Numbered from the stretch's first letter, positions 14,852-62,772 are shown. The stretch: 64,000 bases of DNA from Alphaproteobacteria bacterium (GCA_045614025.1 JAZLCE010000027.1:63033-127032); one strand, 5' to 3'. Made by a program: numbers and translations. Notes: a model not told the origin generated them from the sequence alone.

Positions 14852-15805
14852 ATGACAAAAACCGTTTGGATACTTGCTGACGATAGAACTGGAAATGTTA
14901 ATCAACTTTTAGGCATTGCAGAACGCCTTCCCTTCCCTTTTGAACGAAAAGAAATTCGTTATAATTCATGGATTAAATTACCAAATTTTTTAAGAGGGAA
15001 AAGCTTGATTGGATTAACGAGTGAAAGCAAAAAAAATCTATCAACAGCTTCATATCCAGATCTTGTTTTAAGTGCAGGAAGAAGATCATACCCTGCCGCT
15101 TTATGGATCAAAAAGAAATCAAAAGGTAAAACTAAAATTATTCAATTAATGAATCCTGGAAAAGCATATTTTAAACAAGCAGATTTAGTTATTTTGCCTG
15201 AACATGATTTATATAAGGGATATTCCAAAAATGTTTTAATCTCAACAGGAACACCACACAGAATAACTCCTGAGCGATTAAAACAAGAAAAAGAAAAATG
15301 GGCTTCTCAATTTAAAAAATATTCCTCTCCACGACTTTCATTAATTGTTGGGGGGGCAACAAAAAATAATCCATTTACATTAGAAATGGCTCATGATTTA
15401 CTTAAAAATGTTAATGCACTTAAACCAAAAAGCGTTTTAGTTACAACCTCTAGACGAACACCAAAAGAAATTGTTTCCTATCTCAAAAAAAATCTTGATA
15501 AAAAAACAACTTTCTTTTATCAATTTGGAGATAAAATTGAAAATCCTTATTTTGGGCTCCTTTCTTCAGCAGATATAATTCTTGTTACAGGGGATTCAAT
15601 GTCTATGTGTTCTGAATGCTGTGCAACGAATGTTCCTGTTTTTATTTTTGCGCCAGATTTAATGATGAGCGAAAAACACAAACGTTTTCACAAAAGCCTT
15701 TTTAAAAATGGATATGCCCTTCCAGCTGGATCAAAGCTTAAACCCACAAAAGGGAATTTCAATCCTGCTGGAAATATTATTCATCAGATTCTAAAATTAT
15801 TTTAA
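14852..15805 (+). CDS. ELM1/DUF1022-family protein (glycosyltransferase-like, mitochondrial-fission ELM1 homologue)
   Basis: 317 aa. The N-terminus VWILADDRTGNVNQLLGIAERL resembles alphaproteobacterial DUF1022 proteins. Confidence 0.45.
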   Translation: MTKTVWILADDRTGNVNQLLGIAERLPFPFERKEIRYNSWIKLPNFLRGKSLIGLTSESKKNLSTASYPDLVLSAGRRSYPAALWIKKKSKGKTKIIQLMNPGKAYFKQADLVILPEHDLYKGYSKNVLISTGTPHRITPERLKQEKEKWASQFKKYSSPRLSLIVGGATKNNPFTLEMAHDLLKNVNALKPKSVLVTTSRRTPKEIVSYLKKNLDKKTTFFYQFGDKIENPYFGLLSSADIILVTGDSMSMCSECCATNVPVFIFAPDLMMSEKHKRFHKSLFKNGYALPAGSKLKPTKGNFNPAGNIIHQILKLF

Positions 15806-15819
15806 ACCGGAGATTTGAC

Positions 15820-16815
15820 GTGCCAAAAATAAGTATTATCATTCATCTAACTGCTCAAGAAAATATTGCAAATCTCTGTATTGAAAGTTTGCTTAAGCAA
15901 ACATTTCAAGACTTTGAATGTTTATGCGTTCTGTCAGATGCTGAAAAAGAATATCCTTTTTTAACAACTCTTTCAAAAAAAAATAAAAAATTCAAAATAT
16001 TAAAACAAATAAATTCCCCATCCAAATGGCACTGTTATAATGAGGCGCTTTATCAAATGAAGGGCGAATATGCGCTTTTCTTAAATGATTCTGATTTATT
16101 GCATCCACAAGCTTTAGATATTTATATGGATGCCTTACGTTATTCGCATGCTGATATTGCCACTGCAAATCCTTTTTATTTTTCTGGAACAAAAAAAATA
16201 AAAGCATTGGAAAAGAAAATTGCATTTGAAAAAAGCTCACTCAAAAAGAAAAACAATAATTTAATTGCCGAATTTTGGCAAGAAAATTTACCCTATATTG
16301 ATGAAACACTTGAAGGAAAAATGTTTTCTCAAACTATTCTTGCTTATCTTAAATTTCATCCGTCTCTTTGTGAATTTGCACCATACTTTTTTATTGAGCA
16401 ATTTTATTCTATGACACAATCTTTGGTATATATTCGCCATCAACTTTATTTTTATCGAAAAGAGGCTCATATCCCTTCTGTTGCCTCTTATGAAACGCTT
16501 ATGAATTTAAAAGAGCGCATTTCATTTGAATATGCCTATTTTGTTGATGATGGAAGAATAAGCTCATACACCGAAACGCTCTTAAACCATAGATGTTCAC
16601 AAGATTTGTTTTTAGCAGTTAAACATATTTTAACACACACACCTGAGAGATCTTTTATCTGCATTAATCAACAAATTATCACTTTGATTGAAGAGCTTAA
16701 AGATTTTGGTTTATTAAAAGGCCTTAGTCTTTCTTTAGTTCAAAAAAGCATTCTTTGGGCCCTAACAAAAGGCCATCTATCCTTGGCTAAAAAACTTATT
16801 CAATTCTTTTATTAA
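15820..16815 (+). CDS. Family 2 glycosyltransferase (GTG start)
   Basis: N-terminal SIIIHL...QTFQDFE pattern of the GT2 Rossmann domain. GTG start is tightly spaced after the upstream gene. Confidence 0.55.
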   Translation: MPKISIIIHLTAQENIANLCIESLLKQTFQDFECLCVLSDAEKEYPFLTTLSKKNKKFKILKQINSPSKWHCYNEALYQMKGEYALFLNDSDLLHPQALDIYMDALRYSHADIATANPFYFSGTKKIKALEKKIAFEKSSLKKKNNNLIAEFWQENLPYIDETLEGKMFSQTILAYLKFHPSLCEFAPYFFIEQFYSMTQSLVYIRHQLYFYRKEAHIPSVASYETLMNLKERISFEYAYFVDDGRISSYTETLLNHRCSQDLFLAVKHILTHTPERSFICINQQIITLIEELKDFGLLKGLSLSLVQKSILWALTKGHLSLAKKLIQFFY

Positions 16816-17402
16816 ATGTTGTTTTTTAAAATTTCATCATATCGACGCTTAATTTCTTGGATATCTTCCCACATAAGTGCTTTTGGTGAACCTGGTCTTG
16901 CGATTGGATTTCTAAGCAAATATGATGGATGAAAAATAGGCATCATTTTTGAACCATTTGGCCCATCAAACCATTTTCCACGAACTTTTGAAATGGCTGA
17001 TGCATTTGGCAAAAAGCTTGTTAATGCAACACGTCCACACAGCAAAATAATTTTTGGTTTCAAAATATTTAATTGAGCATCTAAATAATTTCTACAAGCT
17101 TCTTTTTCACTTGGCAATGGATCTCTATTTTCTGGAGGACGACACTTTAATGTGTTACAAATATAAATATCTTTTTCTCTGCTTAAACCAACAGATTCAA
17201 AAATTTTATCAAGTAATTGACCGGCGCGACCAACAAATGGCTTTCCTTGCAAATCTTCATTAGCCCCTGGAGCTTCACCAATCAAAACAATATTTGAATT
17301 TGGCTTCCCATCAGAAAAAACAACATTTGTTCTTGTTTTTGCTAAAGGACATTTTTGACAATTTAAACATTCTAATCTAACTTTTTCTAATTCTTCTAAC
17401 AT
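16812..17402 (-). CDS. Uracil-DNA glycosylase, family 4 (4Fe-4S type)
   Basis: GEAPG motif (LIGEAPGANEDLQGKPFVGRAGQLL) and CxxC...C cysteines near the N-terminus. Confidence 0.85.
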   Translation of the reverse strand: MLEELEKVRLECLNCQKCPLAKTRTNVVFSDGKPNSNIVLIGEAPGANEDLQGKPFVGRAGQLLDKIFESVGLSREKDIYICNTLKCRPPENRDPLPSEKEACRNYLDAQLNILKPKIILLCGRVALTSFLPNASAISKVRGKWFDGPNGSKMMPIFHPSYLLRNPIARPGSPKALMWEDIQEIKRRYDEILKNNI

Positions 17403-26656: not shown

Positions 26657-28534
26657 CTAAAAACCTCCTCCGCCACCTCCGCCGGCACCACCACCGGCAC
26701 CACCACCAGAACCACCGCCGCCTGATCCTCCCGATGAAGAACTATGCGAAGTTGAGGCACTATGCAAACAGGAGCTAACACTTGAAAAAACAGACGCATC
26801 TGAAAAAACATCGTCATCCGGCGGTATAAAATTAAAGTATGTTTCCATTTTTTCACACCACTGATTTTGTAACCCAAGCAAAATGGCATAAGGCAATAAC
26901 TTTTCCATTTCAACTTGCTCAGGTGTTTTATCTTTTAAATCATCAGTTCCTTTTAAGAACATTTCTATTCCTTCTAAATGCTCTATCAAATCCAAACCTT
27001 TATCATAAACGCGAACAATAATGTATTTATAAAAAGCAACAATACAAGAAAATAAAAAGACAAAACACCATACTTTATAATCTGCCATACTTGTTATAAG
27101 CTCATCAACCTCTTTTAATAATAAATCAGAAAGCTCATATATAGCATGTAAAAACAAGAAACTAAAACAAGATAAAAAAACCGTCAATATGATCACACCA
27201 ACTGCAATTATAATCCAATTTTTACCTCTTGTAAAAACACTTAAAACAACATTTGAAAACCCAAGCGTTACACCACCCAAGATAAGAGAAACAAATAAAA
27301 ACGAAAAATCATTAAAATATAACATGAAAAAACAAAAACAAAAAACAAACATTAAAAATTTAAACATCAAAAGACATTTTGTGTTATATTTAAATAATAC
27401 AGATGTCTGTTTTTCAGAATATTGTTTATACTCTTCAACATACTTTACAAACGAAGAACTATATACCCCCTTTTTAAGCGAATACTTGTTTTTTGCCCTT
27501 TCAATAAAAAACTTTTCATCTGAATTGCTTGGCTTTATCTTCATATTTTTTTCAAGAGTTATTCCTTTTTTATCGGTTTTTATTTTTAACAATCCTTTTT
27601 GTGAAAGATATGCTAAATGAGGCATGATTAAATCACAAGAATCAATACCTAAACATTGATAATTCTTAAGAAAAAATAAAGCGCCCAATTTATTAAATTT
27701 AGGGATATCAAATCTTGGATAGGCAGGCCTTCTTATACCGTCTTCTCCATGTTTTTTCCATGAAAAATAAGCATAATATGCCACCCAATAGAACACAAAA
27801 AGTATAACTATTATAAATAAAATATTTACATACTTATTAAAAGGAATGCCTGGCTCTTGTATTTTAAAAAAACCTGAGTCAAAATCCACGTTCAAACTCA
27901 AAGCTTCTCGTTTTTTTAATCCATTTGGTAAATGAATTAAAATTTGATTATCTTGTTTTAAAAAGGGAGTGTCTTGATTTTTTGAACCATATTTCCCGAA
28001 AAATACTTTTGGTTCTTCTGCCAATGTGACACCAGAAGGCAAGCGAACAATGGCTGCAACGTCCAAAATATTAAACATCCATTCATTGCAAATCAAATTA
28101 TAATAAAACACATCCTGTATTTTCTCTTCATTATACCTTACAATATTTTGATGTTTATATGTTATTTTATATTCATAAATCCCCGGATAAATATATCGAT
28201 TCATATCCCCCAAATAAACACGTTTTTGATTATCTCCCCTTTTGGTGGTATAGGGAATATCTTTCCCATTTCTTGTTACAGATATAATTGAAACAGGAGT
28301 TTTTTCGCCCGCATAACGTGTTGGTAAATCCCTATAAATACCTCTTTTAATATCCTTACCTTGCGCTCTTACTTTAATTGTTTCGTGCACAAGCAAAGAC
28401 GAATCTTGATTTAATTCAGCATAAATATGATAAGATAAAATTTCTTCTTTTTGCACACTAGCATTTGCTATTAAATTGCAAAAAAAACAACCAAATAAAA
28501 AAACAAAAAGAAATAACGCTTTTTTAATCTTCAT
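26657..28534 (-). CDS. DUF2207-family membrane protein with a C-terminal poly-Gly/Ser tail
   Basis: Signal peptide, a central block of TM helices, and the tail SSSSGGSGGGGSGGGAGGGAGGGGGGGF. Its start overlaps the lemA stop (ATGA), the conserved LemA-DUF2207 pair. Confidence 0.65.
   Translation of the reverse strand: MKIKKALFLFVFLFGCFFCNLIANASVQKEEILSYHIYAELNQDSSLLVHETIKVRAQGKDIKRGIYRDLPTRYAGEKTPVSIISVTRNGKDIPYTTKRGDNQKRVYLGDMNRYIYPGIYEYKITYKHQNIVRYNEEKIQDVFYYNLICNEWMFNILDVAAIVRLPSGVTLAEEPKVFFGKYGSKNQDTPFLKQDNQILIHLPNGLKKREALSLNVDFDSGFFKIQEPGIPFNKYVNILFIIVILFVFYWVAYYAYFSWKKHGEDGIRRPAYPRFDIPKFNKLGALFFLKNYQCLGIDSCDLIMPHLAYLSQKGLLKIKTDKKGITLEKNMKIKPSNSDEKFFIERAKNKYSLKKGVYSSSFVKYVEEYKQYSEKQTSVLFKYNTKCLLMFKFLMFVFCFCFFMLYFNDFSFLFVSLILGGVTLGFSNVVLSVFTRGKNWIIIAVGVIILTVFLSCFSFLFLHAIYELSDLLLKEVDELITSMADYKVWCFVFLFSCIVAFYKYIIVRVYDKGLDLIEHLEGIEMFLKGTDDLKDKTPEQVEMEKLLPYAILLGLQNQWCEKMETYFNFIPPDDDVFSDASVFSSVSSCLHSASTSHSSSSGGSGGGGSGGGAGGGAGGGGGGGF
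26684..26707. repeat. Tandem 2 x 12-nt direct repeat (GGCACCACCACC) inside a GC-rich tract that encodes the poly-Gly tail
   Basis: Read directly at 26684-26695 and 26696-26707. An in-frame unit inside the CCACC-rich stretch 26665-26730. Confidence 0.8.
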
Positions 28535-29073
28535 AAAAAATCCTTCACATTTGGCACAACTTTTTCATGAGAGCCCTCTAATTGGAAAAAAGATTTATCG
28601 GAAAGCTTAAAGGTTTTTTTTAATAAGCAAATCGGAAATAAATTGATAAAGGAGTTAAATTTTCTTACCACCCCATTATAATAACGACGAGCATGTTGCA
28701 AATCATCCTCAATTAAAGACAATTCTTTTTGTATTTTTAAAAACGCTTCATCTGCTTTTAAATTTGGATAATCCTCTTTTAATCCCAAAATCAAACACAA
28801 TCCTTGCTCAAATTGATTTTCCAAATTTTCTTTTTTTTGCAATATTTTTTGATTCATTGTTTGATTTCTAAGACGAACAACTTCTTCAACAGTTTTCGAT
28901 TCATGTGTGCAATATGCCGAAACTGTTTTCACAAGATTAGGAACCAAATCATACCGGCGTTTCAATTGCACATCAACTCCGCTTTCGGCTTCAAGAATCA
29001 AATTTTTAAGATGGATGGTTTTATTATAGATAAAAATTAATCCAAGTATAAAAGCTAAAATAAAAATAAACAT
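28531..29073 (-). CDS. lemA: LemA-family membrane protein
   Basis: N-terminal TM (MFIFILAFILGLIF) then a helical LemA domain. Start trimmed to the ATG at 29073, which has an AGGGAG RBS. Confidence 0.78.
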   Translation of the reverse strand: MFIFILAFILGLIFIYNKTIHLKNLILEAESGVDVQLKRRYDLVPNLVKTVSAYCTHESKTVEEVVRLRNQTMNQKILQKKENLENQFEQGLCLILGLKEDYPNLKADEAFLKIQKELSLIEDDLQHARRYYNGVVRKFNSFINLFPICLLKKTFKLSDKSFFQLEGSHEKVVPNVKDFL

Positions 29074-29164
29074 ATCAAATCTCCCTGTTTGTTTTTTTAT
29101 AGAACAAAAAATGCCAGAATACAAGAATAATCACCCTGCACAAGAAAATAAAAAAAACAAACCC

Positions 29165-42633: not shown

Positions 42634-43884
42634 ATGCTATTTTCAAAAAAACCACCTATGCCAACAAACTTTAAATTAGGGACTCAGGAAAAAACCTTAA
42701 ATCAACCTTTTGAAAATGAACCTAAAATTCAACAACCAAAACCGTCTTTTCAAATGCCTGAACCTCCTGCATTTAAAGAGCCAATGTTTATGCCTCAAGC
42801 ACCTAAATTTTCTCAAGATAATTCATCTTCTCAATCTTTTACCCCCCCCATTGAAACAACGGTTATTAAAGAAGAAACAACCCCTCACGAAGAAATAAAT
42901 GAAAATGGGCAAAAAGTTTTTAAAGCAAAATCCATTAAAGATGTTGATTTTTCAGACATTTGGTTCACGCCTGAAAAAATTGCTTATATCCGAGATAAAA
43001 ACACAAAATTTGCCCTCATTCCATTTGAAACAGAAGATTTAGATGATTTCTTAAAAATTTTGGAACAAGGGTATCAAGGATCCGCAAGCTATGCCATTCG
43101 TTTTTTAAATGAAGCATATCGTGTTGAACGCGTTATCACTTCAACAGGAACTCAATATAATTGCCGTAAAATGCCGGCCACAACACCAAGTATCTATAAA
43201 TTAGGATTACCTGAGCCAATTGTAAAATATATGACTTCTTTAGCAACCGAATCAGGTCTTATTTTACTTGCAGGACCAACTGGTATGGGGAAAACAACAA
43301 CAGTTTCAGCTTTAGTTAAAGAGTTTTTGGAAACACATGGTGGCTTTTTATACACCATTGAAGATCCACCTGAAATGCCTCTTGATGGTCTTTATCATGC
43401 AAGAAATGGAGGCCTAGGGTTATGCAAACAAAGCTCTGTTGAAAATGAAAGATGGGGAGATGCATTAAAATCAGCTCTACGTTCACGTCCAAGATATATC
43501 CTTGTTGGGGAAATCAGAACGCCTGAAGTTGCCTCTCAAGCTTTACGGGCCGCTACATCTGGTCACCTTGTTCTTTCAACCATTCATGCCAATAGTGTTG
43601 AAGATGCATTAAATTCCGTTATTAAATATGCTTCTGGCGCCGGGTTGGATGAAAAACTTGTTTGTGACTTATTAGCACGCGGGATTTTAGGTGTTGTACA
43701 TCAACAATTAGAAGGAACAACAAATTTAAGACCCATTATTCATACAGCATTTGCAAATCCAAATCCTTTAGTTGCTTGCCAAATGCGAATGACTATCAGA
43801 GAAGGAAAAATCTCACTCGCTACATTTATGGAAGCCCAAAATACAAGAATATTTCAAGGGCGACCAATGTTTAGAGAACTATAA
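42634..43884 (+). CDS. PilT/VirB11-class secretion ATPase (orphan) with a proline-rich N-terminal extension
   Basis: Walker A GPTGMGKTT, Asp box EDPPE, Walker B RYILVGEIRTPE, His box GHLVLSTIHA. The first ~90 aa are Pro/Gln-rich and low complexity. Confidence 0.75.
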   Translation: MLFSKKPPMPTNFKLGTQEKTLNQPFENEPKIQQPKPSFQMPEPPAFKEPMFMPQAPKFSQDNSSSQSFTPPIETTVIKEETTPHEEINENGQKVFKAKSIKDVDFSDIWFTPEKIAYIRDKNTKFALIPFETEDLDDFLKILEQGYQGSASYAIRFLNEAYRVERVITSTGTQYNCRKMPATTPSIYKLGLPEPIVKYMTSLATESGLILLAGPTGMGKTTTVSALVKEFLETHGGFLYTIEDPPEMPLDGLYHARNGGLGLCKQSSVENERWGDALKSALRSRPRYILVGEIRTPEVASQALRAATSGHLVLSTIHANSVEDALNSVIKYASGAGLDEKLVCDLLARGILGVVHQQLEGTTNLRPIIHTAFANPNPLVACQMRMTIREGKISLATFMEAQNTRIFQGRPMFREL

Positions 43885-47534: not shown

Positions 47535-48347
47535 ATGAATTATAGCGCTATTTTAAAATGGTATCAACTTTCTGGGATTTCGGAAGTCATCAGTGAAACA
47601 CCTGTTGACCGTTTTTTTGCGTTTAAAATGGGGCAAACTGAAACACCCCTTCAAAAAGAAGAAACAAAGAAATTTGTTTCACCGAAAAAAGAAACGACAA
47701 TTCAACCAAAAGATGAAAGTTTATCTTTTGTTGCCCAAGCCAAAAATCTTGCAAATGAAGCAACAACGCTTCAACTTTTAAAAGAAAAAGTTTCTGCTTT
47801 TGAAGGATGCTCTCTTAAAAAGACAGCGTTAAACACGTTTACTGGCGTTGGAAAAGAAAAAAATCCAACTGTTTTTTGCATTTTTGATGCCCCAAAAGCG
47901 CCTGCAGAACGATCAGGAAATCTTTTTGAAGGGCCTCAAGGTATTTTGCTTCAAAAAATGCTTGCCGCTATTCAACTGTCACCCCAAAATAGTTTTATAG
48001 CACCATTAATTCCTTGGCGCCTTCCAGGGGATAGAAAACCCTCTTTAACGGAAGAAAAAATTTGCGCGCCGTTTATTATGAGGGCATTGGAATTAACAAA
48101 TCCTGATTTTATTTTAATTTTTGGATCCATTCCAACAAGAGCTTTGCTTGGCATTGAAAGCATTTCAAAAGCGCGTCAACAAATTCAAAAAATAAACATT
48201 AACAACAGGGAAATACCCGTTATTTCAACTTTTGGACCAGACATGGTCTCAGCCTCCCAAACATCAAGAAAAAATGCATGGGATGATTTAAAAAAACTTT
48301 CTGAACTTATTCAAAATAAAGCACCTAACAACGAAGAGGATAAATAA
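47535..48347 (+). CDS. Uracil-DNA glycosylase superfamily protein (divergent family-4-like) with an N-terminal extension
   Basis: C-terminal domain has VFCIFDAPKAPAERSGNLFEGPQGILLQKML (a GEGPG-like motif variant). About 100 aa of unknown N-terminal region. Confidence 0.6.
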   Translation: MNYSAILKWYQLSGISEVISETPVDRFFAFKMGQTETPLQKEETKKFVSPKKETTIQPKDESLSFVAQAKNLANEATTLQLLKEKVSAFEGCSLKKTALNTFTGVGKEKNPTVFCIFDAPKAPAERSGNLFEGPQGILLQKMLAAIQLSPQNSFIAPLIPWRLPGDRKPSLTEEKICAPFIMRALELTNPDFILIFGSIPTRALLGIESISKARQQIQKININNREIPVISTFGPDMVSASQTSRKNAWDDLKKLSELIQNKAPNNEEDK

Positions 48348-49623: not shown

Positions 49624-49644
49624 TCCGTTTAACTTAAAAAGAAA

Positions 49645-49680
49645 AACCCATCTGTTTTCAGATGGGTTTTCTTTTGGTTT
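49645..49680. terminator. Bidirectional terminator between serS and the convergent CC-repeat operon
   Basis: 10-bp stem AACCCATCTG/CAGATGGGTT with loop TTTT, and T-runs on both strands. Confidence 0.6.
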
Positions 49681-49738
49681 TGATTTCAAAAGAGGAAGAA
49701 TTACCAAATATTTTCATTGGTAACCCTTCCTCTTTTTT

Positions 49739-51208
49739 TTATCGTCCACCTAACGGACCAGCATATCCCTTATCTCCTTCTTCTGGTAGGCCATCAGCAA
49801 CACAAGCACCATTAATTTTTTTGCCCCATGTGATGCAACAAAATGAATTATACATCCATTTACCACCAGCATTTTCGCAACAAGCTGCTGTTCTTGAACC
49901 AGTCATAATATCCATTGATCCTCTACAGCAAGAAGCGCTCGATTCTTCTTGATCTGGATCGCCAGGAGCACTACTGCTACTAGTAACCCATTCACCATAT
50001 GCATGTTCGCAACAAGCTTGAGTTGGTTTACCCTTTATATTTCTCGGAGAAGTTGGGTCTTCGCAACATTCCCCTTCACCACCATTACCGCCATCTGCAT
50101 AATTAGAGCTTGGGCAACAACCATAATAATCTCCATCAGGATACTCTTTATCATCACTGTTTTGACAGCAAGCCCCACCTATAGCAAACTTTCCAGTTTC
50201 ACAACAATCCGTATCGCCATAATTGCCGTTTTGTGGATTCACAAATTTTTTAATATAAACATTACCCTTACAACAAGCCCCTGATTTTAATTCAGAACCA
50301 TCGTCCAGCGTTACTTTTTTCACATAACCATCTTCATCTGATGCACAACAAGCATCAATATCTCCGAGATCTGATACTACTTTAGGGCTTTTACAGCAAT
50401 CTTCTATCACATCTGTTTCACTTGAATCATTATAGGCGCGCCCATAAACAGTTCCTCCTATACAACAACCAAGATCGGCCACCCCTGAATCAAAAGCTTT
50501 GTTATAGGCGTTTCCTCCATCCCCTACGCAACAATTAGAGGTTACTTTTGCGCCTGAATAAGTGATTACAACTTTACCATCTAGAGTCATCGATTGATAC
50601 ATTTGATTTGCCATTGCCGTGCCATCTTTTTCGGTTGCACAGCAATCGCCATTTTCCCATTTACCCTCTGCCGCCTTGCAACATTCCTTTGAATGGGCTT
50701 TTTTATCAAAATCATAAGCTTGAAAGCAACAGCGGTCTGAGTGTTCTTCCCCACCTTGCGCCCGGCAACATCTGGCATTATTCGACCCAGTTGACCAATA
50801 TTTCCAACTATCTGCAATGCAACAAATTCCACCGTTTCCTGGCATATTTTGAGTATCTGCAGCTCCTTCTAATGGCCAAAAGACATAGTTCCCAGGATCC
50901 TTTCCTTTTGCTATTTGACTTGTGCAACAATCTTCTGTTACAACTCCACCGCGAATTGGAATACCCTCTGGAGATAAAGCATATGCCGCGGTAACATTAT
51001 TGATTGAACAACAAGTGCCTCCACGCCATTCAAAGTTTTCTTCATTTCCCCAACCACCTTTGCAACAATCTTCAGAGGTTGAAATTTTAGACATGTAACA
51101 ACAATTTGGATTTAATACGGCTCCACCTCCACCTGACTGAGACATTACTTCGGTTGAAATCACCAAGGCGCCACTCAAAGATAAAATCATTCCCCATTTT
51201 TTCATCAT
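49739..51208 (-). CDS. Secreted vicinal-cysteine (CC-doublet) repeat protein B. Novel; no family recognised.
   Basis: Start trimmed to the ATG at 51208 (MMKKWGMILSLSGALVISTEVMS signal peptide, preceded by a G8 RBS-like tract). The mature ~465 aa contain about 22 Cys-Cys doublets spaced 8-35 residues apart and one single Cys. Gly/Asp/Asn-rich. Confidence 0.7.
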   Translation of the reverse strand: MMKKWGMILSLSGALVISTEVMSQSGGGGAVLNPNCCYMSKISTSEDCCKGGWGNEENFEWRGGTCCSINNVTAAYALSPEGIPIRGGVVTEDCCTSQIAKGKDPGNYVFWPLEGAADTQNMPGNGGICCIADSWKYWSTGSNNARCCRAQGGEEHSDRCCFQAYDFDKKAHSKECCKAAEGKWENGDCCATEKDGTAMANQMYQSMTLDGKVVITYSGAKVTSNCCVGDGGNAYNKAFDSGVADLGCCIGGTVYGRAYNDSSETDVIEDCCKSPKVVSDLGDIDACCASDEDGYVKKVTLDDGSELKSGACCKGNVYIKKFVNPQNGNYGDTDCCETGKFAIGGACCQNSDDKEYPDGDYYGCCPSSNYADGGNGGEGECCEDPTSPRNIKGKPTQACCEHAYGEWVTSSSSAPGDPDQEESSASCCRGSMDIMTGSRTAACCENAGGKWMYNSFCCITWGKKINGACVADGLPEEGDKGYAGPLGGR

Positions 51209-51214
51209 TTTTAT

Positions 51215-51222
51215 CCCCCCCC
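51215..51222 (-). repeat. Homopolymeric G8 tract (C8 on + strand) in the ribosome-binding spacer of CC-repeat gene B
   Basis: Read directly. It lies 6 nt upstream of the ATG at 51208 and 2 nt downstream of the stop of the preceding gene. Unusual in this AT-rich genome. Confidence 0.85.
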
Positions 51223-51224
51223 TT

Positions 51225-52484
51225 TTAATTGCGCTCTCTGGATGCGCTTTGATTCCGGCGTGTATTTCGCGCATTTCTTGAACTTGTTGTTCTTGTTCTA
51301 GATGAAGATCGGGATGATGCTCTGGAAGAGGATCTTGAAGAAGACCTGCCATCATATAATCCCCTAATAGGAACAACATCATAAACATGGTTCACCCCTT
51401 CTTCAATCTCATACGTATTAAAAGAGTTTACAACATATGTGTGCTTTACCAATTCTTCAACATACCGATTTGCTTTTTGATAGGTAAGGCAAAGCGCTCT
51501 GGTTAAGGGGGTTTTATTCATTGAAAGTGAGCGAACATTTCCACCTTTTTGTTGAATAATTTGTTCTAGCCCATCCATCATTTCCCTTAAAGCGGCTGGA
51601 GCATTCAATAATTGAGCTGCGCGAGCTGATAAGGATGGATTAATATCCTCTGGACTTGGTTGATTAAAAAAGGTGAGACTTATTGTACGATTATTGGCAA
51701 AAGATGTCGTAACAATTCCTTTACCTCCACAATCAGAACCAATGCCTAAAATTCCTGTTTCTAATAAACCTTCATAAGAATAAAGTGGATGCCCCAAAGT
51801 GCGATAAAGCGAAGCTTGTTGCTCTGTATAATTGGATAAATCCAATGCATCCGTATGTTGTCCAAAAAGAATCCATTTTGTTGGTATAAATTTACCCATT
51901 AATTGAGCTGGGTCCACCTCAGGATCGCGCCCCAAATCAACCAATTGCATGCCATAAAAATAATGAAAGTTTTCATTTAAAATAGCAAGAACATCTTTTA
52001 AAAATTCTTGATCAGGTTCATCCATCACTTTATTTCCGCGGTTCACTGCTCTTAATTCAGAAGCCGATAATTCAATCCATGGCCGATCCGTTTGCGGGTT
52101 AATGGCGGGTTCTTTTCGATATTCCCATGCTTGATCATCCCCAAAAAAGCGCGTGCGATATAAAAAGATATGCCCCCCTTTTTCATAAAGACCAATGCCA
52201 TCTTCATCATTCACATAAAGCAAGCTTTCGCCTGACATCAAATATCGATAATTGTTTCTATTTTGCTCTATCCATTCTTTAAAAACAGGATGAAGGGTGG
52301 CATAGTTATCGGCTTCTCGATAAAGCCTATAAATCGAAGTAGGGTTTTTGCGTTTGGATCCAAACCTTCCACTTGAAACGCGTTCACTTGGCGTATATTC
52401 GCAAGCAAGCAAATCCCTTGATTCCAAGGTGGAAGCGCAAACGCCCCACATAACCGATAATAACAATAAGTCTTTATATCTCAT
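51225..52484 (-). CDS. Secreted protein with a C-terminal Arg/Ser-rich (RS-repeat) tail. Unknown function.
   Basis: Signal peptide MRYKDLLLLSVMWGVCAST. The last ~40 aa read GRSSSRSSSRASSRSSSRTRTTSSRNARNTRRNQSASRERN. No recognised catalytic motifs. Confidence 0.65.
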   Translation of the reverse strand: MRYKDLLLLSVMWGVCASTLESRDLLACEYTPSERVSSGRFGSKRKNPTSIYRLYREADNYATLHPVFKEWIEQNRNNYRYLMSGESLLYVNDEDGIGLYEKGGHIFLYRTRFFGDDQAWEYRKEPAINPQTDRPWIELSASELRAVNRGNKVMDEPDQEFLKDVLAILNENFHYFYGMQLVDLGRDPEVDPAQLMGKFIPTKWILFGQHTDALDLSNYTEQQASLYRTLGHPLYSYEGLLETGILGIGSDCGGKGIVTTSFANNRTISLTFFNQPSPEDINPSLSARAAQLLNAPAALREMMDGLEQIIQQKGGNVRSLSMNKTPLTRALCLTYQKANRYVEELVKHTYVVNSFNTYEIEEGVNHVYDVVPIRGLYDGRSSSRSSSRASSRSSSRTRTTSSRNARNTRRNQSASRERN

Positions 52485-52517: not shown

Positions 52518-55337
52518 TTATCCATTCCCCCCAACAACGCCTTCTTCAGGACAGGAGCCAACATATGTGCCATAACCATTTTCAACACCTGGAGGACAAT
52601 CATATGTTCTTAGCGTTTTTCTTCGCTCAACTTCAACAATGCCACCAGGTTTTGAGCTTCCAGGAATATGCGTATATTTAAAGCATTCTTTTGCTGGCTT
52701 ATTTTTCAAACCTCTGGGTATGAAGCAATCATCCCCATAAGCAAGCCCACTTGGATTACTTGGACAACAAGCACAAGATATTGTTCCATTAGCCAAAACA
52801 CCTTCCTCTTGACAGCAATTTCCATTAATCTCTTTACATACTGTGGTATCACATTCCATTTCTTGCGTGTCTGGAATCACTTCTTCTTCTGTCTTAATTG
52901 TATCTATATACGTGCAATAATCATAGCATTTATCTGGGTTTGGTTGGGGCCCCTCTGTGCACTTTTTACAACTTGTGCATTTTGAACCATCCCAATATAT
53001 GCCTTTTCCACCAGCTTGCATGGATGCATAATCACAACAAATTTTACTTTCCGTTCCATCAATAGCTTGCCCCGTTTTTAAATCACAACACATACTTTCA
53101 GTTGTGTTATATGAGATACCCGTTGGATAACAAGTTGTTCCAGAGGTCCCAGTTGGGCACTGACCCGCCTGAGCATACCCTTGAATCGTTGTTCCCACCA
53201 AAACAAACGTTCCTTTGGAGCGAATAAGTGGATTTGTTGTATTATAATAAAGAGGAGATTCGCAACATTCTTTATAATTATTTTTCACATCACCTTCTGT
53301 TGCGCTCATAGAAGTACCCTCTAATGTTTGGCAACAATATTCTGGCGAAGGCATCCCGCTCCAATCTCTAATCTTTTGATCATAAGTTAACGCAGTTCCA
53401 GAACGTTCAAGCTCTTTATAATCCACACAACAGTTGCGATCTGGCTCTGGAACACTGGTAGGCGCAGTCGCAATAATTCCACATTCTTGTGAAATATTTT
53501 GTCCAACTTGATAATGTGGGCCATGAACATAAGAAAGTTTTCGTCCATTCATATCCGTTGCCACATTACAGCATTCTTGAGAATATTTAAGCACACCACC
53601 TTCATAAGCACAAGCAGATGTTTTTAAACGTTTTTGAAGCCCTTCCATTTTATAACAGCAATCTGTTGTTGGCGTTCCCATAATATCCAATGGAGCAGCC
53701 CCTGTAATCGGCGTTCCCAATGTTGGAACATTAGAAACACCTTCCCATGGACATTGCTCAGTTGTTGAAGCCGTGCGAAACGCCAGCACATCATTTTGCG
53801 AACAACAAAGCGCTTTTCCAGTTTCTGATGTAAGATTTGTACCAGCAACTTGGCCATCGGCTTCTGCCCAATATCCTCCTCCTGCAATGCAACACTGATC
53901 GACCGTTACTTCACTTGTTTGAGATGAACTTCCCAATGGACAGTTTTGATATTGGGTGGATGTTGATCCTTTTGATGTAGCAATTGTCCACGGCAATACT
54001 GCCCCCGTGATGGATGAAATGTGACATGGCACGGTAATAGATGTTGTAGGAGGTTCACCCGGGCAACAAGATGCATCCATCTCACCAGCCCAGTTGCCGC
54101 CAATATAAATCTCTTCTTCCGAAGTGATAGCGTCCGTATCAAAAACCCACGTTTCTTCATAAACCGGTATTCCATTTTCATCTACAACTGGTTTACCTGT
54201 GGCATCTGTTTTAGCAGTGATACGAACAGAATAACGCCCATCTGGGCCCACTTTACAACGAGGTGTATTTTCAATATTTTCAACCAGTTTACAACATTTT
54301 GGCCCCCCTGGAATGAAAACAACATCATCACCCAACAATTCACAACATTCTTGCGATTCAATGTGTCCACCACTTTCTTCAGTATATGGCGTACCAGGAA
54401 CACAAGTCATATCCGGTGTTGGCAGTAAATCAATCCCTTGTTTTTGACCGAAATAAAGAACCAATGTTTGAAGTGGAATCATTTTCTTTGATCCATCCTC
54501 ATTTTTTTCACCCGTATCTACCCTTGCCCCATAGGCCATACAAGCCAAACTTTTTTTATTTTCGCAAACAGAACCTGCCCCTGGAGCGGTTTCTGGATTA
54601 TCTTCATCTTCAAGATTTCTGAGATATTTTTGCGCTAAAGAAATATTTCCTTTAGTTGGGTCAATCATGGTGCAAACTTTATCAATTTGTTCTTTTGTTG
54701 CAATGCCTTCTTCCCCACCCCGTTCTGGGTTTGCATATTTATTTTCTTTTGAAATATTCAAAAAGTCTGGCGTAAAAGGATCCATCGGCGATCCACTCTG
54801 ACTTTGAAGCGCAACATATGCATAATCAAAACCTAAATCGCTTTTGTATAATAACTTTTCACATAACGTATAGGAAAGCCCTGTAACACGAACAGTCCAG
54901 TTATTTTCATCTTCAGCACGAACCCAAGCTGGTGCATCAAGCAAGGTATCAAACGATTCATGTTCGCGCACCTCAACCATCTTGGATCTATCGCCACCAA
55001 CAAGCTTGCCCTCTTCGTCAATTAACCCAGCATCAAAGGCCGATTCTTCCGAACGATACCGCACCCTTGAAACAACATCTCTGATTGGAATAATATATGG
55101 AACATAGTCATCAGCAATACCAACTGTTTGAAATCCATAATGAAGAGGAATATCCCATGAACGACCACCTGCAACTAAAACACTAAGCTGATCCAATGTT
55201 TCAGCTTCTTGATATAAACGCATTGCGTAGCCATAACCAACAATTCCACCAATTGATAAAACCCCCGCCAAGGCCAAAACGCCAAGCATTTCAGCCATTG
55301 TTCGTCCGTTCTCCATCCCAATTTTTTCTTTTTGCAT
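52518..55337 (-). CDS. Large membrane-anchored/secreted Cys-rich protein A with CC doublets and a pilin-like N-terminus. Novel.
   Basis: ATG at 55337 with AGGGGA RBS is preferred over the upstream TTG at 55364. N-terminus MQKEKIGMENG/RTMAEMLGVLALAGVLSIGGIVGY has a Gly before a hydrophobic helix and Glu at +5. The ~900-aa Gly/Thr/Ser-rich body has 14 or more CC doublets plus about 30 single Cys. Confidence 0.65.
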   Translation of the reverse strand: MQKEKIGMENGRTMAEMLGVLALAGVLSIGGIVGYGYAMRLYQEAETLDQLSVLVAGGRSWDIPLHYGFQTVGIADDYVPYIIPIRDVVSRVRYRSEESAFDAGLIDEEGKLVGGDRSKMVEVREHESFDTLLDAPAWVRAEDENNWTVRVTGLSYTLCEKLLYKSDLGFDYAYVALQSQSGSPMDPFTPDFLNISKENKYANPERGGEEGIATKEQIDKVCTMIDPTKGNISLAQKYLRNLEDEDNPETAPGAGSVCENKKSLACMAYGARVDTGEKNEDGSKKMIPLQTLVLYFGQKQGIDLLPTPDMTCVPGTPYTEESGGHIESQECCELLGDDVVFIPGGPKCCKLVENIENTPRCKVGPDGRYSVRITAKTDATGKPVVDENGIPVYEETWVFDTDAITSEEEIYIGGNWAGEMDASCCPGEPPTTSITVPCHISSITGAVLPWTIATSKGSTSTQYQNCPLGSSSQTSEVTVDQCCIAGGGYWAEADGQVAGTNLTSETGKALCCSQNDVLAFRTASTTEQCPWEGVSNVPTLGTPITGAAPLDIMGTPTTDCCYKMEGLQKRLKTSACAYEGGVLKYSQECCNVATDMNGRKLSYVHGPHYQVGQNISQECGIIATAPTSVPEPDRNCCVDYKELERSGTALTYDQKIRDWSGMPSPEYCCQTLEGTSMSATEGDVKNNYKECCESPLYYNTTNPLIRSKGTFVLVGTTIQGYAQAGQCPTGTSGTTCYPTGISYNTTESMCCDLKTGQAIDGTESKICCDYASMQAGGKGIYWDGSKCTSCKKCTEGPQPNPDKCYDYCTYIDTIKTEEEVIPDTQEMECDTTVCKEINGNCCQEEGVLANGTISCACCPSNPSGLAYGDDCFIPRGLKNKPAKECFKYTHIPGSSKPGGIVEVERRKTLRTYDCPPGVENGYGTYVGSCPEEGVVGGNG

Positions 55338-55394
55338 CGGACATCCCCTTTTTTCATATGTCAAAAAGAAGGGTTAACAACCCCGTATACTTTC

Positions 55395-55423
55395 AGAATA
55401 CCAAAAAATACGCATATCGTCAA
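55395..55423 (-). promoter_or_regulatory. Candidate sigma70 promoter of the CC-repeat operon (TTGACG-17-TATTCT on minus strand)
   Basis: -35 at 55423-55418 and -10 at 55400-55395 (minus strand), giving a leader of about 50 nt to the ATG at 55337. Confidence 0.4.
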
Positions 55424-55470: not shown

Positions 55471-56172
55471 TTAATCAACAGATAACCAAGCCCATGCTCC
55501 CAAAATGGCAATAGATGCTGTTTCAGCCCTTAAAATGGTATCCCCCAAATGAAGGGGCACAACATTTTTTTGACATAAAATAAAATCAACTTCATCTGGT
55601 GTAAAACCACCTTCAGGACCAATAATAAATGCTGGATTTTTCACTTCAAATAACGTTTTTGATCCTGTTTTACCGCGCTCGGTTAAAAAAACAGGCGTGA
55701 CCTCTTTTGAAAATTTTAAAAACAAATCTTTTAAAAGAATCGGTTCAAAAATTTCAGGCACATCCAACCTTTCTGATTGTTCAGCCGCCTCTTGTATAAT
55801 TAAATGAGCTCTTTCAATATTAAATCCACGCACAACAGTTCGATTTGTTATAACAGGATAAATTTTGGTGACCCCCAATTCCGTTGCCTTTTCTAACACA
55901 AGGTCCATATTTTCTTTTTTAATCACAGAGGGGCATAAAATAAGCTCTGCGCGCTTTGAAAATTCTTTTGTTTTTTCTAATACTTGCAATAAACAATTTT
56001 TTTTCTTTACATTGCTTACTTTTGCTTTAAATTCGCCATCAACCGAATTAAAAAGCAAAATTTCAGAACCTTCTTTTTGGCGCATCACATGAACTAAATA
56101 ATGCGCTTGTTTTTCATCCAAAGAAAGTTCCTGCCCTGTGGATAACTTTTCTTTTACAAATAATCTAATCAT
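55471..56172 (-). CDS. rsmE: 16S rRNA (uracil1498-N3)-methyltransferase RsmE
   Basis: 233 aa. N-terminal PUA-like region and a C-terminal SPOUT domain. Start overlaps the stop of the upstream gene (ATGA). Confidence 0.75.
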   Translation of the reverse strand: MIRLFVKEKLSTGQELSLDEKQAHYLVHVMRQKEGSEILLFNSVDGEFKAKVSNVKKKNCLLQVLEKTKEFSKRAELILCPSVIKKENMDLVLEKATELGVTKIYPVITNRTVVRGFNIERAHLIIQEAAEQSERLDVPEIFEPILLKDLFLKFSKEVTPVFLTERGKTGSKTLFEVKNPAFIIGPEGGFTPDEVDFILCQKNVVPLHLGDTILRAETASIAILGAWAWLSVD

Positions 56173-58169
56173 CTTTTTTTCCTGTGTGATGAAAGTGGCA
56201 ATCCTTCAACCCAAACAAGGGTCACATCATCTTGCGGAGGTGGGGGTATCATTTTGAAAAAGAGTTGCATTAATTCAGAAACAGCTTCCCTGCTATCCTT
56301 ATAGTCAAAAACTGTTTGTAACAAACTTAAAAAGCCATCTGTTCCCAAACGCAAACCATCAGAAGACATTTCCTCAGTGAGCGCATCACTATATAAAATT
56401 AACTTATCGCCAGCACAAAAATCAATTTTATAATCATCATATTTTGCATCAGGACTAATTCCCAATGGAAGCCCTTGTGTTGAAAGCAATAAAACGCCAT
56501 TTCTTGTTTTTAAAAATGGCGCAGGTGACCCTGCTCCTGCATAAGAAAGTGTTTGGGCATTTGTATCAAAAATGCAAAAGAAAAACGTTGCATACTGCCC
56601 ACGTGGTAACAACTGACACAACTGCAAATTTAAAAGACGCAAGAAATCTGATGGATTTTTAACTTCTTTTTTCAATTGATGAACCAATGTATGCAGCCTA
56701 AAGGTATTTAACGCCGCTGAAAGCCCATGCCCTGAAAAATCGCATAAAAACAATCCAAATTTCTTTTCAGAAAGCTCTATAACCTGCCAAAAATCGCCAC
56801 CTAATCTATCTGATGGTGAAAAATAAGAAGCAATATCAATATGACATTTTTCCCGAATATTTTCAAGAGTATCAACCGTTGGCAAAAGCGATTGTTGCAT
56901 TTCTTGAGAAATCTTCATTTCCTCATTCAGCTGATCTAATTGATCTGATAAATATTCAACCAATTTTTTATTTTCTAAATGAACACGAACCCTTGTGAAA
57001 AACTCCAAGGGATTAATTGGCTTTGTGATAAAATCAGAAGCACCTGCTTTAAATGTTCGATCCCTTGCTTCCCGCGTGTCACTTGATGTTTGAATTAAAA
57101 TTGGAATATTTTTAACTTCAGGAATTTTTTTAAGCTCCAATAAAACATCATATCCATCCATTTTTTCCATTACAATATCAAGAATAATTAAATCTGGATG
57201 AAATAAAATAGCTTTTTCTATTCCTTCTTCGCCGGAAGAAGCGACCTCAATTTTATGGATTCCCATTTGGGTTAAAAGGCCAGCTAAAAGTGCCTGATTA
57301 CTTTTATTATCTTCAATAATTAATACTCTTCCTTTTGAAATATCTGTTTGCATAACAAATTCTGGAATAGAAGATAAATTTTGAATAGAGGTATTTTCTT
57401 TATTCTCCTTCAAAAAAGAAAGAGTAATTTCTTTACCATAATTATCAATCGTGCATGAATCAACAGCATGCGCAATAATTTGAAGACCACGACCACTTTT
57501 AGAAGAAACATCCCCTGAATTTCTTTTTAAAATTTGCTCTAAAGAATAACCCACACCCTCATCTTTAATTTTAATTTCTAATCGCATTTTATTCCATACA
57601 GAGCAAATTGATATGGCTTTTTGGGCATATGCAGGCGTATTTAACCTTCTTGCAACCAAATCTAAATAAGAAACAAATCCAACAACATCTTGACGCATTG
57701 AACTTGATAATTGCAAATTTCCATGAAAAAGACCATTCACTAAAGCTTCATGAACAGCCAAGTGAATCGCTTGTTTTCGTTCATCTGAAAATTTTCTTCG
57801 TTGTTGCAAAGCTGTTGTGAAAACTTGCGCAACATCATACCTATAAACCATTGGCCCTGTTAAAAGCAAACTTAAAGAAAAAGGATGCTTTCTTTCTTTT
57901 TGTTGCTCAACAAAATCAACGATACTTTTTTTCGTTGCATTTGCATCAATAATGCAAGCAATCGGCAATTTTAAAATTTCTCGCCCATGTTCTTCAGAAA
58001 CATCTGGCGTTACAACAACATATAAAATCGGATGGTCTTTTTTAAGTGGGGTTACTAAAAACGGCTCTTCTTCACTTGGCCAAAGTGGCAACTTAACCCA
58101 AGATGAAATTTTTTTCATCTTTTCAAGACTAACGCCAACCCCTGTTAAACATATTTGTGTCTCACTCAT
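56169..58169 (-). CDS. Fused signalling protein: RsbW/SpoIIAB-like GHKL serine kinase domain, then a response-regulator receiver, then a PP2C/SpoIIE phosphatase
   Basis: GHKL N-box HEALVNGLFHG, G1 DEGVGY and G2 GRGLQI. Receiver VLIIEDN...DLIILDIVM...K. PP2C region GGDFWQV...LCDFSGHG. Confidence 0.7.
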   Translation of the reverse strand: MSETQICLTGVGVSLEKMKKISSWVKLPLWPSEEEPFLVTPLKKDHPILYVVVTPDVSEEHGREILKLPIACIIDANATKKSIVDFVEQQKERKHPFSLSLLLTGPMVYRYDVAQVFTTALQQRRKFSDERKQAIHLAVHEALVNGLFHGNLQLSSSMRQDVVGFVSYLDLVARRLNTPAYAQKAISICSVWNKMRLEIKIKDEGVGYSLEQILKRNSGDVSSKSGRGLQIIAHAVDSCTIDNYGKEITLSFLKENKENTSIQNLSSIPEFVMQTDISKGRVLIIEDNKSNQALLAGLLTQMGIHKIEVASSGEEGIEKAILFHPDLIILDIVMEKMDGYDVLLELKKIPEVKNIPILIQTSSDTREARDRTFKAGASDFITKPINPLEFFTRVRVHLENKKLVEYLSDQLDQLNEEMKISQEMQQSLLPTVDTLENIREKCHIDIASYFSPSDRLGGDFWQVIELSEKKFGLFLCDFSGHGLSAALNTFRLHTLVHQLKKEVKNPSDFLRLLNLQLCQLLPRGQYATFFFCIFDTNAQTLSYAGAGSPAPFLKTRNGVLLLSTQGLPLGISPDAKYDDYKIDFCAGDKLILYSDALTEEMSSDGLRLGTDGFLSLLQTVFDYKDSREAVSELMQLFFKMIPPPPQDDVTLVWVEGLPLSSHRKKR

Positions 58170-61473: not shown

Positions 61474-62772
61474 ATGCATATTCGCTCGTTTATGTTTTTA
61501 TCCACTATCGCTTTTTTATATACAGGTCTGATAGCTCAAGCAACAACTTTACCCTCTGTTGTTTGTCAAAATAAAAAATGTTACCCAGCAGAAGCCTCTT
61601 TAACAAGAAAGAGTTTGTTTGATCGTGTTCAAAATTTAATCAATGAAAACGTTAATAAAGATATTTTAATTTGCGAAGCAGATTCCTATTCAAAAATGTG
61701 TTTAACAAAAGGATTTTCCCTTCCATTACATTCATCTTCTGTTTCAACAAAAATAAATTTTCTTTCAGCCAAAATTATCAGTAATGAAAGTATTGAAAAT
61801 TCCACTGGAACTGATTTAATTATCGATTATAAAACAAAATCAGACAATATTTTTCCTAATTGTCAAACTGCACCCAGCCGTTTAGGAATTTTAGATAAAA
61901 ACAGCATTCAAATGGTGACTCCAGACTTTACCTGCAGTTTCGGAAACTTAAACCAATCCACTATCAGTCTTACTTATCATATTGACTATATCAATTTTGA
62001 TAATGGAACTATTGGTGCCCATTATAGTATTGCAGCAGGGCAAAGATTAAAAGGGCAATCTTATGGATATGTGTTATTTAGATTTGCTCAACCAAGCTCT
62101 ATCAATTCAAACGAACCATTCCCTATGCAAGATGTTTTGCAAAACTATCAAATAGAGCATCAAAACGCTCAAATGCAAATGCCTCCTGTTTGGATGAAAC
62201 CAACACCTGTTCTCAATATTGAAACACCACAAGTAATAACAAAAGCAGATGGATCCTTAGTTGTTCAAAACCAACAACCGCAAAACACACCATCAACACA
62301 AGGTGTTCCCTCAACAACTGGATTAATTACACAAGAAAAAAATATTTTACCTCCAACACAAGGCTTAAGAAAAACTGTTACAATAAAAAAACAGATATTC
62401 CAAGAAGGCAAACCCGTTGTTTATGAGGAAGATGTTCGCCACTATGTTCAAGAAAATGAAAATGCACCATTAATTGAGGAAAAACAAAACGCTCAACAAG
62501 TTGAAGAAAAACAGCCTGATATTCCTCAAATGCCAACCCCGGTTAATCATTTACCACAAAATCAAATAAACCCTCAAATTCCAAGTTATATTTTTCCACA
62601 TGAGGTGATATTATCTCCAGAAGAAATGGAACAAATTCAAAAAGAATTACCCCCAGAAACACCTGTTCAATCTCATCAGATAAACCCTCAAAATATCATG
62701 CCGATTGAAACAGATGAACCATCTGGTTTAAATAAACTTTGGAATAAAATTGAAAAATTACTTTACTTTTAA
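61474..62772 (+). CDS. Secreted protein with a Pro/Gln-rich low-complexity C-terminal half. Unknown.
   Basis: Signal peptide MHIRSFMFLSTIAFLYTGLIAQA. The N-terminal half is Cys-containing and globular. The C-terminal half has PQ/NPQ repeats. Confidence 0.6.
   Translation: MHIRSFMFLSTIAFLYTGLIAQATTLPSVVCQNKKCYPAEASLTRKSLFDRVQNLINENVNKDILICEADSYSKMCLTKGFSLPLHSSSVSTKINFLSAKIISNESIENSTGTDLIIDYKTKSDNIFPNCQTAPSRLGILDKNSIQMVTPDFTCSFGNLNQSTISLTYHIDYINFDNGTIGAHYSIAAGQRLKGQSYGYVLFRFAQPSSINSNEPFPMQDVLQNYQIEHQNAQMQMPPVWMKPTPVLNIETPQVITKADGSLVVQNQQPQNTPSTQGVPSTTGLITQEKNILPPTQGLRKTVTIKKQIFQEGKPVVYEEDVRHYVQENENAPLIEEKQNAQQVEEKQPDIPQMPTPVNHLPQNQINPQIPSYIFPHEVILSPEEMEQIQKELPPETPVQSHQINPQNIMPIETDEPSGLNKLWNKIEKLLYF

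Follow-up and report, generated by a model that had tools for sequence, protein, structure and literature searches.

A gene on the minus strand of a 64,000-nucleotide stretch of Alphaproteobacteria bacterium DNA (GCA_045614025.1 JAZLCE010000027.1:63033-127032, hereafter the window) encodes a protein, here called B, in which nearly all cysteines occur as adjacent pairs; it is the last gene of a three-gene minus-strand unit, A-M-B, of ~5.6 kb in total. With somewhat better than even confidence, we read B as a secreted, acidic, glycine-rich protein held by a di-cysteine ladder, equivalent in bacteria to the galaxin/granulin hairpin stack, which would act with A and M in an extracellular structure. 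The architecture of B, its conservation, the operon, the link to the galaxin profile and a weak match to the granulin fold were established directly. The structural part of this reading draws on conservation, a single cap cysteine, a Pfam link and a granulin match, and its functional part on genomic context.

Translation of the B gene yielded 45 cysteines, organized as 22 CC doublets (first residues at positions 36, 48, 66, 94, 129, 147, 160, 176, 189, 226, 248, 271, 287, 312, 335, 347, 364, 381, 399, 427, 443 and 457) and one single cysteine, C469, in agreement with the original prediction, made from the sequence alone, that nearly every cysteine lies in a doublet (about 22 pairs). This pattern is far beyond chance, as none of 100,000 residue shuffles of B gave 22 doublets and the maximum reached was 11. 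The peptides quoted in that prediction, from NPNCCYMS to NSFCCITW, were all present in the translation, and the doublets were irregularly spaced as it had described (12–37 residues from start to start), although the segments between them measured 10–35 residues (median 16) and not 8–35. Because the minimum start-to-start spacing is 12, the B sequence contains no CxC or CxxC motifs (x, any residue). The protein is 9.2% cysteine and contains 68 glycines, abundant serine, alanine and aspartate, 38 aromatic residues and only three histidines; the mature chain (466 aa) has a mass of ~49 kDa and an isoelectric point (pI) of 4.5.

The open reading frame (ORF) of B, taken mechanically, spans 49739..51388 (549 aa) and thus runs 60 codons further 5', overlapping the preceding gene M, which ends at 51225; the original prediction had described this extension and had placed the real start at the internal ATG at 51208, behind a run of eight G residues. 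Nine B orthologues, 36–100% identical, begin with M(M)KKWG in the alignment, the exception being the NCBI call of this genome, and this shared beginning supports the internal ATG. The NCBI gene call (P0001, 511 aa), which begins 22 codons 5' of that ATG, would accordingly be too early by those 22 codons. The stop codon of M (51225..51227) lies just 5' of the G8 stretch and of the B start, so that M and B are tightly coupled. At its N-terminus, B has a KK n-region, a 13-residue hydrophobic core and V-M-S ahead of Q24, and MMKKWGMILSLSGALVISTEVMS/Q looks like a Sec-type signal peptide, as proposed originally, judged from these sequence features and from the conservation of the N-terminus in all orthologues.

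The B family is very narrow. Among 5.8 billion proteins we found 11 relatives, all unnamed and none with Pfam domains, and a B-family profile gave 10 matches at E<=0.001 among 1.84 billion representative proteins. A genome scan for the B locus returned only two loci, both in metagenome-assembled genomes (MAGs) of Alphaproteobacteria bacterium, one of them from sheep rectum; the other relatives came from ENA and Logan metagenome assemblies, and a scan of Joint Genome Institute metagenomes returned no B relatives. None of the window proteins B, M and A had a Pfam or NCBIfam match that passed the cutoff, and sequence-profile searches of the PDB with the B and M alignments gave no matches. Within this narrow family the cysteine pattern is the constant element: with a mean column identity of 60% in the orthologue alignment, practically all of the 44 doublet cysteines and C469 were invariant or kept in at least 90% of the aligned orthologues, nearly all of them being invariant at 55–80% identity and most being retained in one orthologue of 36% identity. 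Conservation of the pairs among homologues was one of the points on which the original prediction had staked itself, and the doublets proved to be nearly all conserved; the family is clearly conserved and functional. More distant members carry 5, 11, 22, 24, 25 or 32 doublets, thus both odd and even numbers, and range down to 128 aa in the smallest homologue (P0022). Each member has exactly one single cysteine 12 residues after its last doublet (20 in the smallest member), any other single cysteine being confined to the signal peptide or to an N-terminal extension, and the mature cysteine count was odd in 15 of 15 members. Over the family as a whole, conservation is highest in the C-terminal block.

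A repeat is present in B, but it is cryptic and detectable at the protein level only: Tandem Repeats Finder detected no DNA-level repeats in the gene, while hhalign of alignment segments matched residues 141–192 to residues 393–460 with 95% probability. A three-doublet module, CC-x(10-14)-CC-x-x-[AG]-x-G-x-W-x(3-4)-CC, is found three times, at residues 36–67, 160–190 and 427–458, with z ~3.8 against a null in which all cysteines were held in place and the remaining residues shuffled, a value reached by 3–4 of 2,000 shuffles. The search for a cryptic repeat that had been suggested with the original prediction was thus fruitful. In the 32-doublet homologue P0016 (locus L007, 4316..6226), a three-doublet unit occurs in four plain tandem copies (CC-PNSDDEIY...-CC-DGGVYSKTSD..-CC-E/PxxxFxIDDKA, with Ser/Asp-rich linkers), and its three segment types are also found in B, at residues 312–364. 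The tandem copies of P0016 show how the B family lengthens.

The link to galaxins comes from the Pfam family Galaxin_repeat (PF24748, gathering cutoff 28 bits), and the animal proteins compared, known from corals, molluscs, squid and sponges, are the galaxins, the galaxin-like proteins and the calcarins. Window B scored 18.7 bits (E 0.0018, residues 35–99), its homologue P0015 25.2 bits and P0016 57.0 bits (E 2.5e-15), the last being above cutoff. With the B-family profile, P0016 gave E 1.9e-36, owing to the common C-terminal block, and it is the third gene of an A-M-B operon at its own locus; judged by these matches, it is a genuine member of the B family. B is therefore linked to PF24748 by transitivity, through a homologue that passes the cutoff with a score possibly driven by CC spacing alone. 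Galaxins have been described as secreted, acidic, tandem-repeat proteins in which the di-cysteine arrangement is the sole conserved feature (PMC2726143); galaxins and sponge calcarins carry 10–23 di-cysteines at 10–15 aa spacing, with a single cysteine at inter-doublet distance both upstream and downstream of the array, and their high-confidence AlphaFold models bond the first cysteine of each doublet to the preceding hairpin's second cysteine, forming a continuous disulfide backbone (PMC12419799). B has in common with galaxins a signal peptide, an acidic pI (~4.5), nearly all cysteines in CC doublets, a doublet number (22) within the animal range, an array closed by a single cysteine and little conservation beyond the doublets. 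Unlike galaxins, B is bacterial, is encoded in an operon with a pilin-like protein, has 10–35 residues between doublets, alternates helix-borne and strand-borne doublets in its model and shows no evident link to biomineralization. It also has a cap cysteine at the C-terminal end only, the upstream single cysteine being absent from the mature chain of B and of its close orthologues, and its cysteine count is odd for this reason. As far as the sequences go, the resemblance to galaxins may reflect either homology or convergence.

An AlphaFold2 model of B, built from a 10-sequence alignment, had a mean predicted local distance difference test (pLDDT) score of 61.6, with values of 80–90 over residues 130–230. 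In the model the doublets lie in short strands or one-turn helices with hairpins after them, and the two settings alternate, one-turn helices (e.g. 144–150, 174–179, 397–402 and 441–446) with short hairpin strands (127–131, 159–162, 188–190 and 456–459). Foldseek returned no significant match of the model in the PDB, the top match being an Entamoeba lectin (E 0.05, template-modelling score 0.08, not significant). Cysteine-rich, protease-resistant surface proteins are known from anaerobic gut dwellers, namely the variant-specific surface proteins of Giardia and the Gal/GalNAc lectin of Entamoeba. The Giardia proteins and the heavy chain of the Entamoeba lectin are, like B, cysteine-rich, but their cysteines are arranged as CxxC/CxC and those of B as CC doublets, and they have no significant similarity to B in sequence or fold. 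The sole fold match of B, a weak one, was granulin (zebrafish granulin AaE, PDB 6cku), and no solved fold other than granulin's is built on CC doublets. Granulin is a closed 12-cysteine unit, C-C-CC-CC-CC-CC-C-C, in which each CC doublet bonds two different distant cysteines. Granulin AaE is a four-hairpin stack (PMC7463432), and the secondary-structure pattern of the B model together with this weak match is compatible with an inter-hairpin ladder. In contrast with the granulin module (~56 aa, loops of 5–8 residues, two caps per end), B has longer loops, and its 22 doublets make up a single open array; its sequence lacks the 12-cysteine motif and gave no match to Pfam Granulin at E<=1.

Protein A has an ATG start at 55337, preceded by the ribosome-binding site AAAGGGGA, the TTG start at 55364 in the ORF list being probably wrong. 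Its N-terminus, in which a hydrophobic helix comes after G11-R-[TS]-M-[AI]-E16-M-L, is prepilin-like and invariant in 11 orthologues, with Arg, neither Phe nor Met, as residue +1. Against TIGR02532, the model of the prepilin-type cleavage/methylation domain (cutoff 16.3), the most divergent orthologue, P0034, scored 19.0 and P0033 14.5, whereas window A fell below cutoff and showed weak similarity to the prepilin peptidase-dependent protein PRK10506 (E 0.14); P0034 also scored 18.5 against N_methyl (PF07963, cutoff 21.2), and the one match of an A-family profile in the PDB was a weak one to Geopilin (7tgg_A, E 0.3), over the N-terminus. Protein A as a whole had no family match. Its residues 50–300 are cysteine-poor, and residues 310–939 hold 14 CC doublets and 25 single cysteines, and of the 11 orthologues 10 have an odd total. 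A BLASTP comparison of B with A gave no significant similarity, so that A and B, though both carry CC doublets, are not paralogues at a detectable level. Protein M is secreted and has a novel fold; it shows a signal peptide, a well-conserved body, 49 relatives and a Ser/Arg-rich C-terminal tail of ~45 residues; the pI of this tail is 12, versus 4.5–4.6 for the acidic A and B.

The A-M-B order is kept in six loci beside RsmE and SerRS and in three loci beside FtsH, which indicates that the operon, and not its neighbourhood, is the conserved unit. The three genes are closely spaced and have a promoter-like site and a terminator in common. Its guanine-cytosine (GC) content is 39–42%, versus 34% for the window, but GC at the third codon position (0.26–0.29) equals that of the native, highly expressed EF-Tu and LepA, the excess lying at codon position 2; horizontal transfer from a eukaryote was rejected on these grounds, and nothing suggests that the operon was recently acquired from a foreign source. 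At 6 kb from the operon, alone among translation genes, lies a divergent secretion ATPase of the PilT/GspE family (42634..43884, plus strand; best match pilT_fam, 123 bits versus a cutoff of 319), and apart from it and A there were no other pilus genes in the window. TcpB and CofB, two large minor pilins of type IVb pili, have as binding partners the secreted proteins TcpF and CofJ, which are encoded in the same loci. A-M-B resembles these systems in placing an oversized pilin-like protein beside Sec-dependent secreted proteins (M and B), but differs from them in that the remaining pilus genes are absent from the window; the likeness is one of operon logic.

For B, we infer the disulfide connectivity, the free cysteine and a surface or adhesive role as follows. 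B would be exported by Sec, with cleavage of its 23-residue signal peptide, and the BamD homologue encoded in the window implies an outer membrane and hence a periplasm. Its fold would be an extended series of small beta-hairpins and one-turn helices, every one of them with a CC doublet, in which each doublet would serve as a two-way hook, its first cysteine bonded to the second cysteine of the previous doublet and its second cysteine to the next doublet, and the 22 doublets would form one continuous covalent backbone closed C-terminally by C469. The galaxin bonding rule applied to B would give 21 inter-doublet bonds plus C458-C469 and would leave C36 unpaired, because no N-terminal cap cysteine matches C469; C36 would then be free for one intermolecular disulfide, either between two B molecules or with A, whose cysteine count is odd too. 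The resulting rod would be stiff, protease-resistant and tunable in length by added doublets (5–32 in the family). A granulin-type ladder (i to i+2) was considered less parsimonious than this galaxin-type one (i to i+1), because it needs two caps per end and only one cap is present. A model of closed two-doublet units was rejected in view of the members with 5, 11 and 25 doublets; the co-occurrence of odd and even numbers fits an open ladder better. The constant partnership with a pilin-like, cysteine-rich A and a basic-tailed M suggests a fibre, coat or adhesin outside the cell, and A, M and B together would form such a structure, protease-resistant, in an uncultured gut alphaproteobacterium. 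A more elaborate proposal, which we regard as rather unlikely as a whole, is that A-M-B is an undescribed surface apparatus of uncultured gut Alphaproteobacteria, possibly with reduced genomes and reliant on partners. In it, a type IV filament-type machine would display the giant A, the B rod (5–32 doublets), held by its disulfide ladder, would extend or decorate A covalently via C36, and M, with its novel fold and basic tail, would help in assembly or anchoring; the product would tether the bacteria to host or partner cells and withstand proteases. On this proposal bacteria would independently have invented or inherited the galaxin-type ladder, which has so far been discussed for animals only.

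Other readings of the cysteines start from their chemistry. Each CC could close on itself as an eight-membered ring, the vicinal model that came with the original prediction, which would make B a series of strained redox switches with C469 as the sole free thiol. Vicinal disulfides are rare and usually occur as single functional sites, which weighs against this model, and it gives no role to an invariant cap cysteine at inter-doublet distance and does not account for the conservation, in the segments between doublets, of the hairpin-forming G-G-x-W and of aromatic positions. The adjacency of the cysteines speaks for such rings, which would tolerate any doublet number, as seen in the family, and the galaxin literature cites peptide work in which di-cysteines form cyclocystine loops, earlier proposed for galaxin (PMC2726143); the AlphaFold models of galaxin nevertheless show inter-hairpin bonds (PMC12419799), and the only fold match, granulin, bonds its doublets to distant cysteines (PMC7463432). 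We hold the vicinal model to be very unlikely, and on this analysis the doublets of B are more likely to be inter-hairpin hooks; the original interpretation as a whole is partly supported. Alternatively, an anaerobic gut bacterium poor at making disulfides could keep the cysteines reduced, either to act as metal (Zn, Fe, Cu) or thiol ligands or to give the protein an antioxidant surface rich in thiols. The relatives of known source do come from gut-derived samples or alphaproteobacterial MAGs, no Dsb gene was found within the 64-kb window, and the order Rs-D84 comprises low-GC gut Alphaproteobacteria with genomes <1 Mb, without a respiratory chain and presumed to be partner-dependent (PMC12306168), a condition that would hamper DsbB-type oxidation; that the host belongs to Rs-D84 or RF32 is our guess, and its genome may be small. 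However, B has just 9% cysteine, no CxC or CxxC, a putative signal peptide and many more aromatics than histidines, unlike metallothioneins, and as a protein predicted to be exported it resembles the disulfide proteins galaxin and granulin, so that we judge the reduced state unlikely. To a third alternative, in which B is a soluble secreted effector that A helps to export, much as happens with the secreted colonization factors of type IVb pili, and which might imitate growth-factor or antimicrobial modules of the host of granulin or galaxin type, we likewise assign a low probability. It would account for the Sec signal, the pilin-like protein encoded in the same operon, the weak granulin-like match and the PilT/GspE-family ATPase 6 kb away, and it has a precedent in TcpB/CofB with TcpF/CofJ; but the 22 doublets stand in one unbroken chain with no evident processing sites, Pfam Granulin is not matched, other pilus genes are missing from the window, and a doublet number varying from 5 to 32 resembles the tuning of rod length more than a receptor ligand.

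Several points weigh against the ladder model itself. Window B falls below the PF24748 cutoff, and the score of P0016 could stem largely from regularly spaced CC pairs, i.e. from convergence; the B-family profile reached no eukaryotic galaxin, nor any other eukaryotic protein, among the 1.84 billion proteins, and the inter-doublet spacing of B is wider and less regular than that of galaxins. The structural model has an overall pLDDT of only 61.6 and an alignment of only 10 sequences behind it. The odd cysteine count of A could be a coincidence among related sequences. Finally, if the host lies in Rs-D84, it may lack the usual way of making 22 disulfides, the quinone-linked DsbB route, and the window holds no Dsb gene.

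The other genes of the window are housekeeping genes, including those for PEPCK, LigA, GroEL, PNPase, IF2, NusA, EF-Tu, SerRS and BamD. In locus L002, a four-gene glycosyltransferase block lies between the PilT/GspE-family ATPase and EF-Tu. Just upstream of RsmE, and syntenic in all loci, a gene at 56169..58169 (minus strand) encodes a 666-aa fusion of a HATPase_c_2 anti-sigma-type kinase, a response-regulator receiver and a SpoIIE/PP2C phosphatase. Two ORFs, 26657..28534 (minus strand, 625 aa) and 61474..62772 (plus strand, 432 aa), had no NCBIfam match, and the latter had no Pfam match either; the former overlaps the downstream LemA/MamQ-like gene (28531..29124) by 4 nucleotides. Two genes of the uracil-DNA-glycosylase superfamily occur in this one 64-kb stretch (16812..17402, minus strand; 47535..48347, plus strand), the second with a 100-residue N-terminal extension outside the family model. 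A full-length match to Mito_fiss_Elm1 (mitochondrial fission ELM1, E 1e-73) was found at 14852..15805 (plus strand), beside a family 2 glycosyltransferase. Features of the operon and of the B gene are collected in Table 1.

Table 1. Features of the A-M-B operon and of the B gene (window coordinates).
Feature	Position	Strand	Remarks
Terminator-like hairpin, bidirectional, between B and the convergent SerRS gene	49638..49675		
Second hairpin/inverted repeat, directly past the B stop	49688..49736		20-nucleotide arms, 90% complementary
Protein B coding sequence	49739..51208	-	489 aa + stop; translation gives 22 CC doublets + C469
C469, single cap cysteine, 12 residues past the last doublet	49802..49804	-	Invariant in the alignment
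Module copy 3, residues 427-458	49835..49930	-	Part of the conserved C-terminal block
Module copy 2, residues 160-190	50639..50731	-	Within the best-predicted model region, pLDDT 80-90
Module copy 1, residues 36-67, CC-x10-CC-KGGWG...-CC	51008..51103	-	z 3.8 versus Cys-fixed null
First doublet, C36-C37	51098..51103	-	C36 would lack an upstream partner in the ladder model
Putative signal peptide of B, residues 1-23, MMKKWGMILSLSGALVISTEVMS	51140..51208	-	Sequence features; N-terminus kept in all orthologues
G8 ribosome-binding stretch	51215..51222	-	6 nucleotides 5' of the ATG at 51208; read from sequence
Gene M, 419 aa, secreted, globular body + Ser/Arg-rich basic tail	51225..52484	-	Always between A and B
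Gene A, 939 aa, prepilin-like N-terminus, Cys-rich C-terminal two-thirds	52518..55337	-	
Prepilin-type N-terminus of A, G11-R-T-M-A-E16-M-L then hydrophobic helix	55203..55337	-	G11, R12 and E16 invariant
Promoter-like site TTGACG-17-TATTCT + upstream TG, candidate operon promoter	55395..55423	-	Consensus match only; ahead of gene A

Proteins made up almost wholly of CC doublets have so far been discussed as animal matrix or biomineralization proteins (galaxins, calcarins) or growth-factor modules (granulins), and the papers searched and consulted mention no bacterial example. The architecture is already known in animals, the fold idea comes from granulin and from galaxin predictions, and no new protein chemistry is involved, which makes B less exotic than the protein of vicinal disulfides first envisaged; what is new is a conserved bacterial family of this design, with a one-sided cap and an odd cysteine count, in an operon with a pilin-like giant, A, and M, of novel fold. 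It follows that the architecture either goes back much further than had been assumed or is readily invented anew. B, which is compact and perhaps easier to express than animal galaxins, could settle how CC pairs are bonded, as vicinal loops or as a ladder, and gives experimental access to the surface biology of an uncultured gut lineage. The ~5.6-kb A-M-B unit is a concrete candidate for the means by which this lineage makes a surface or attachment structure that resists proteases.

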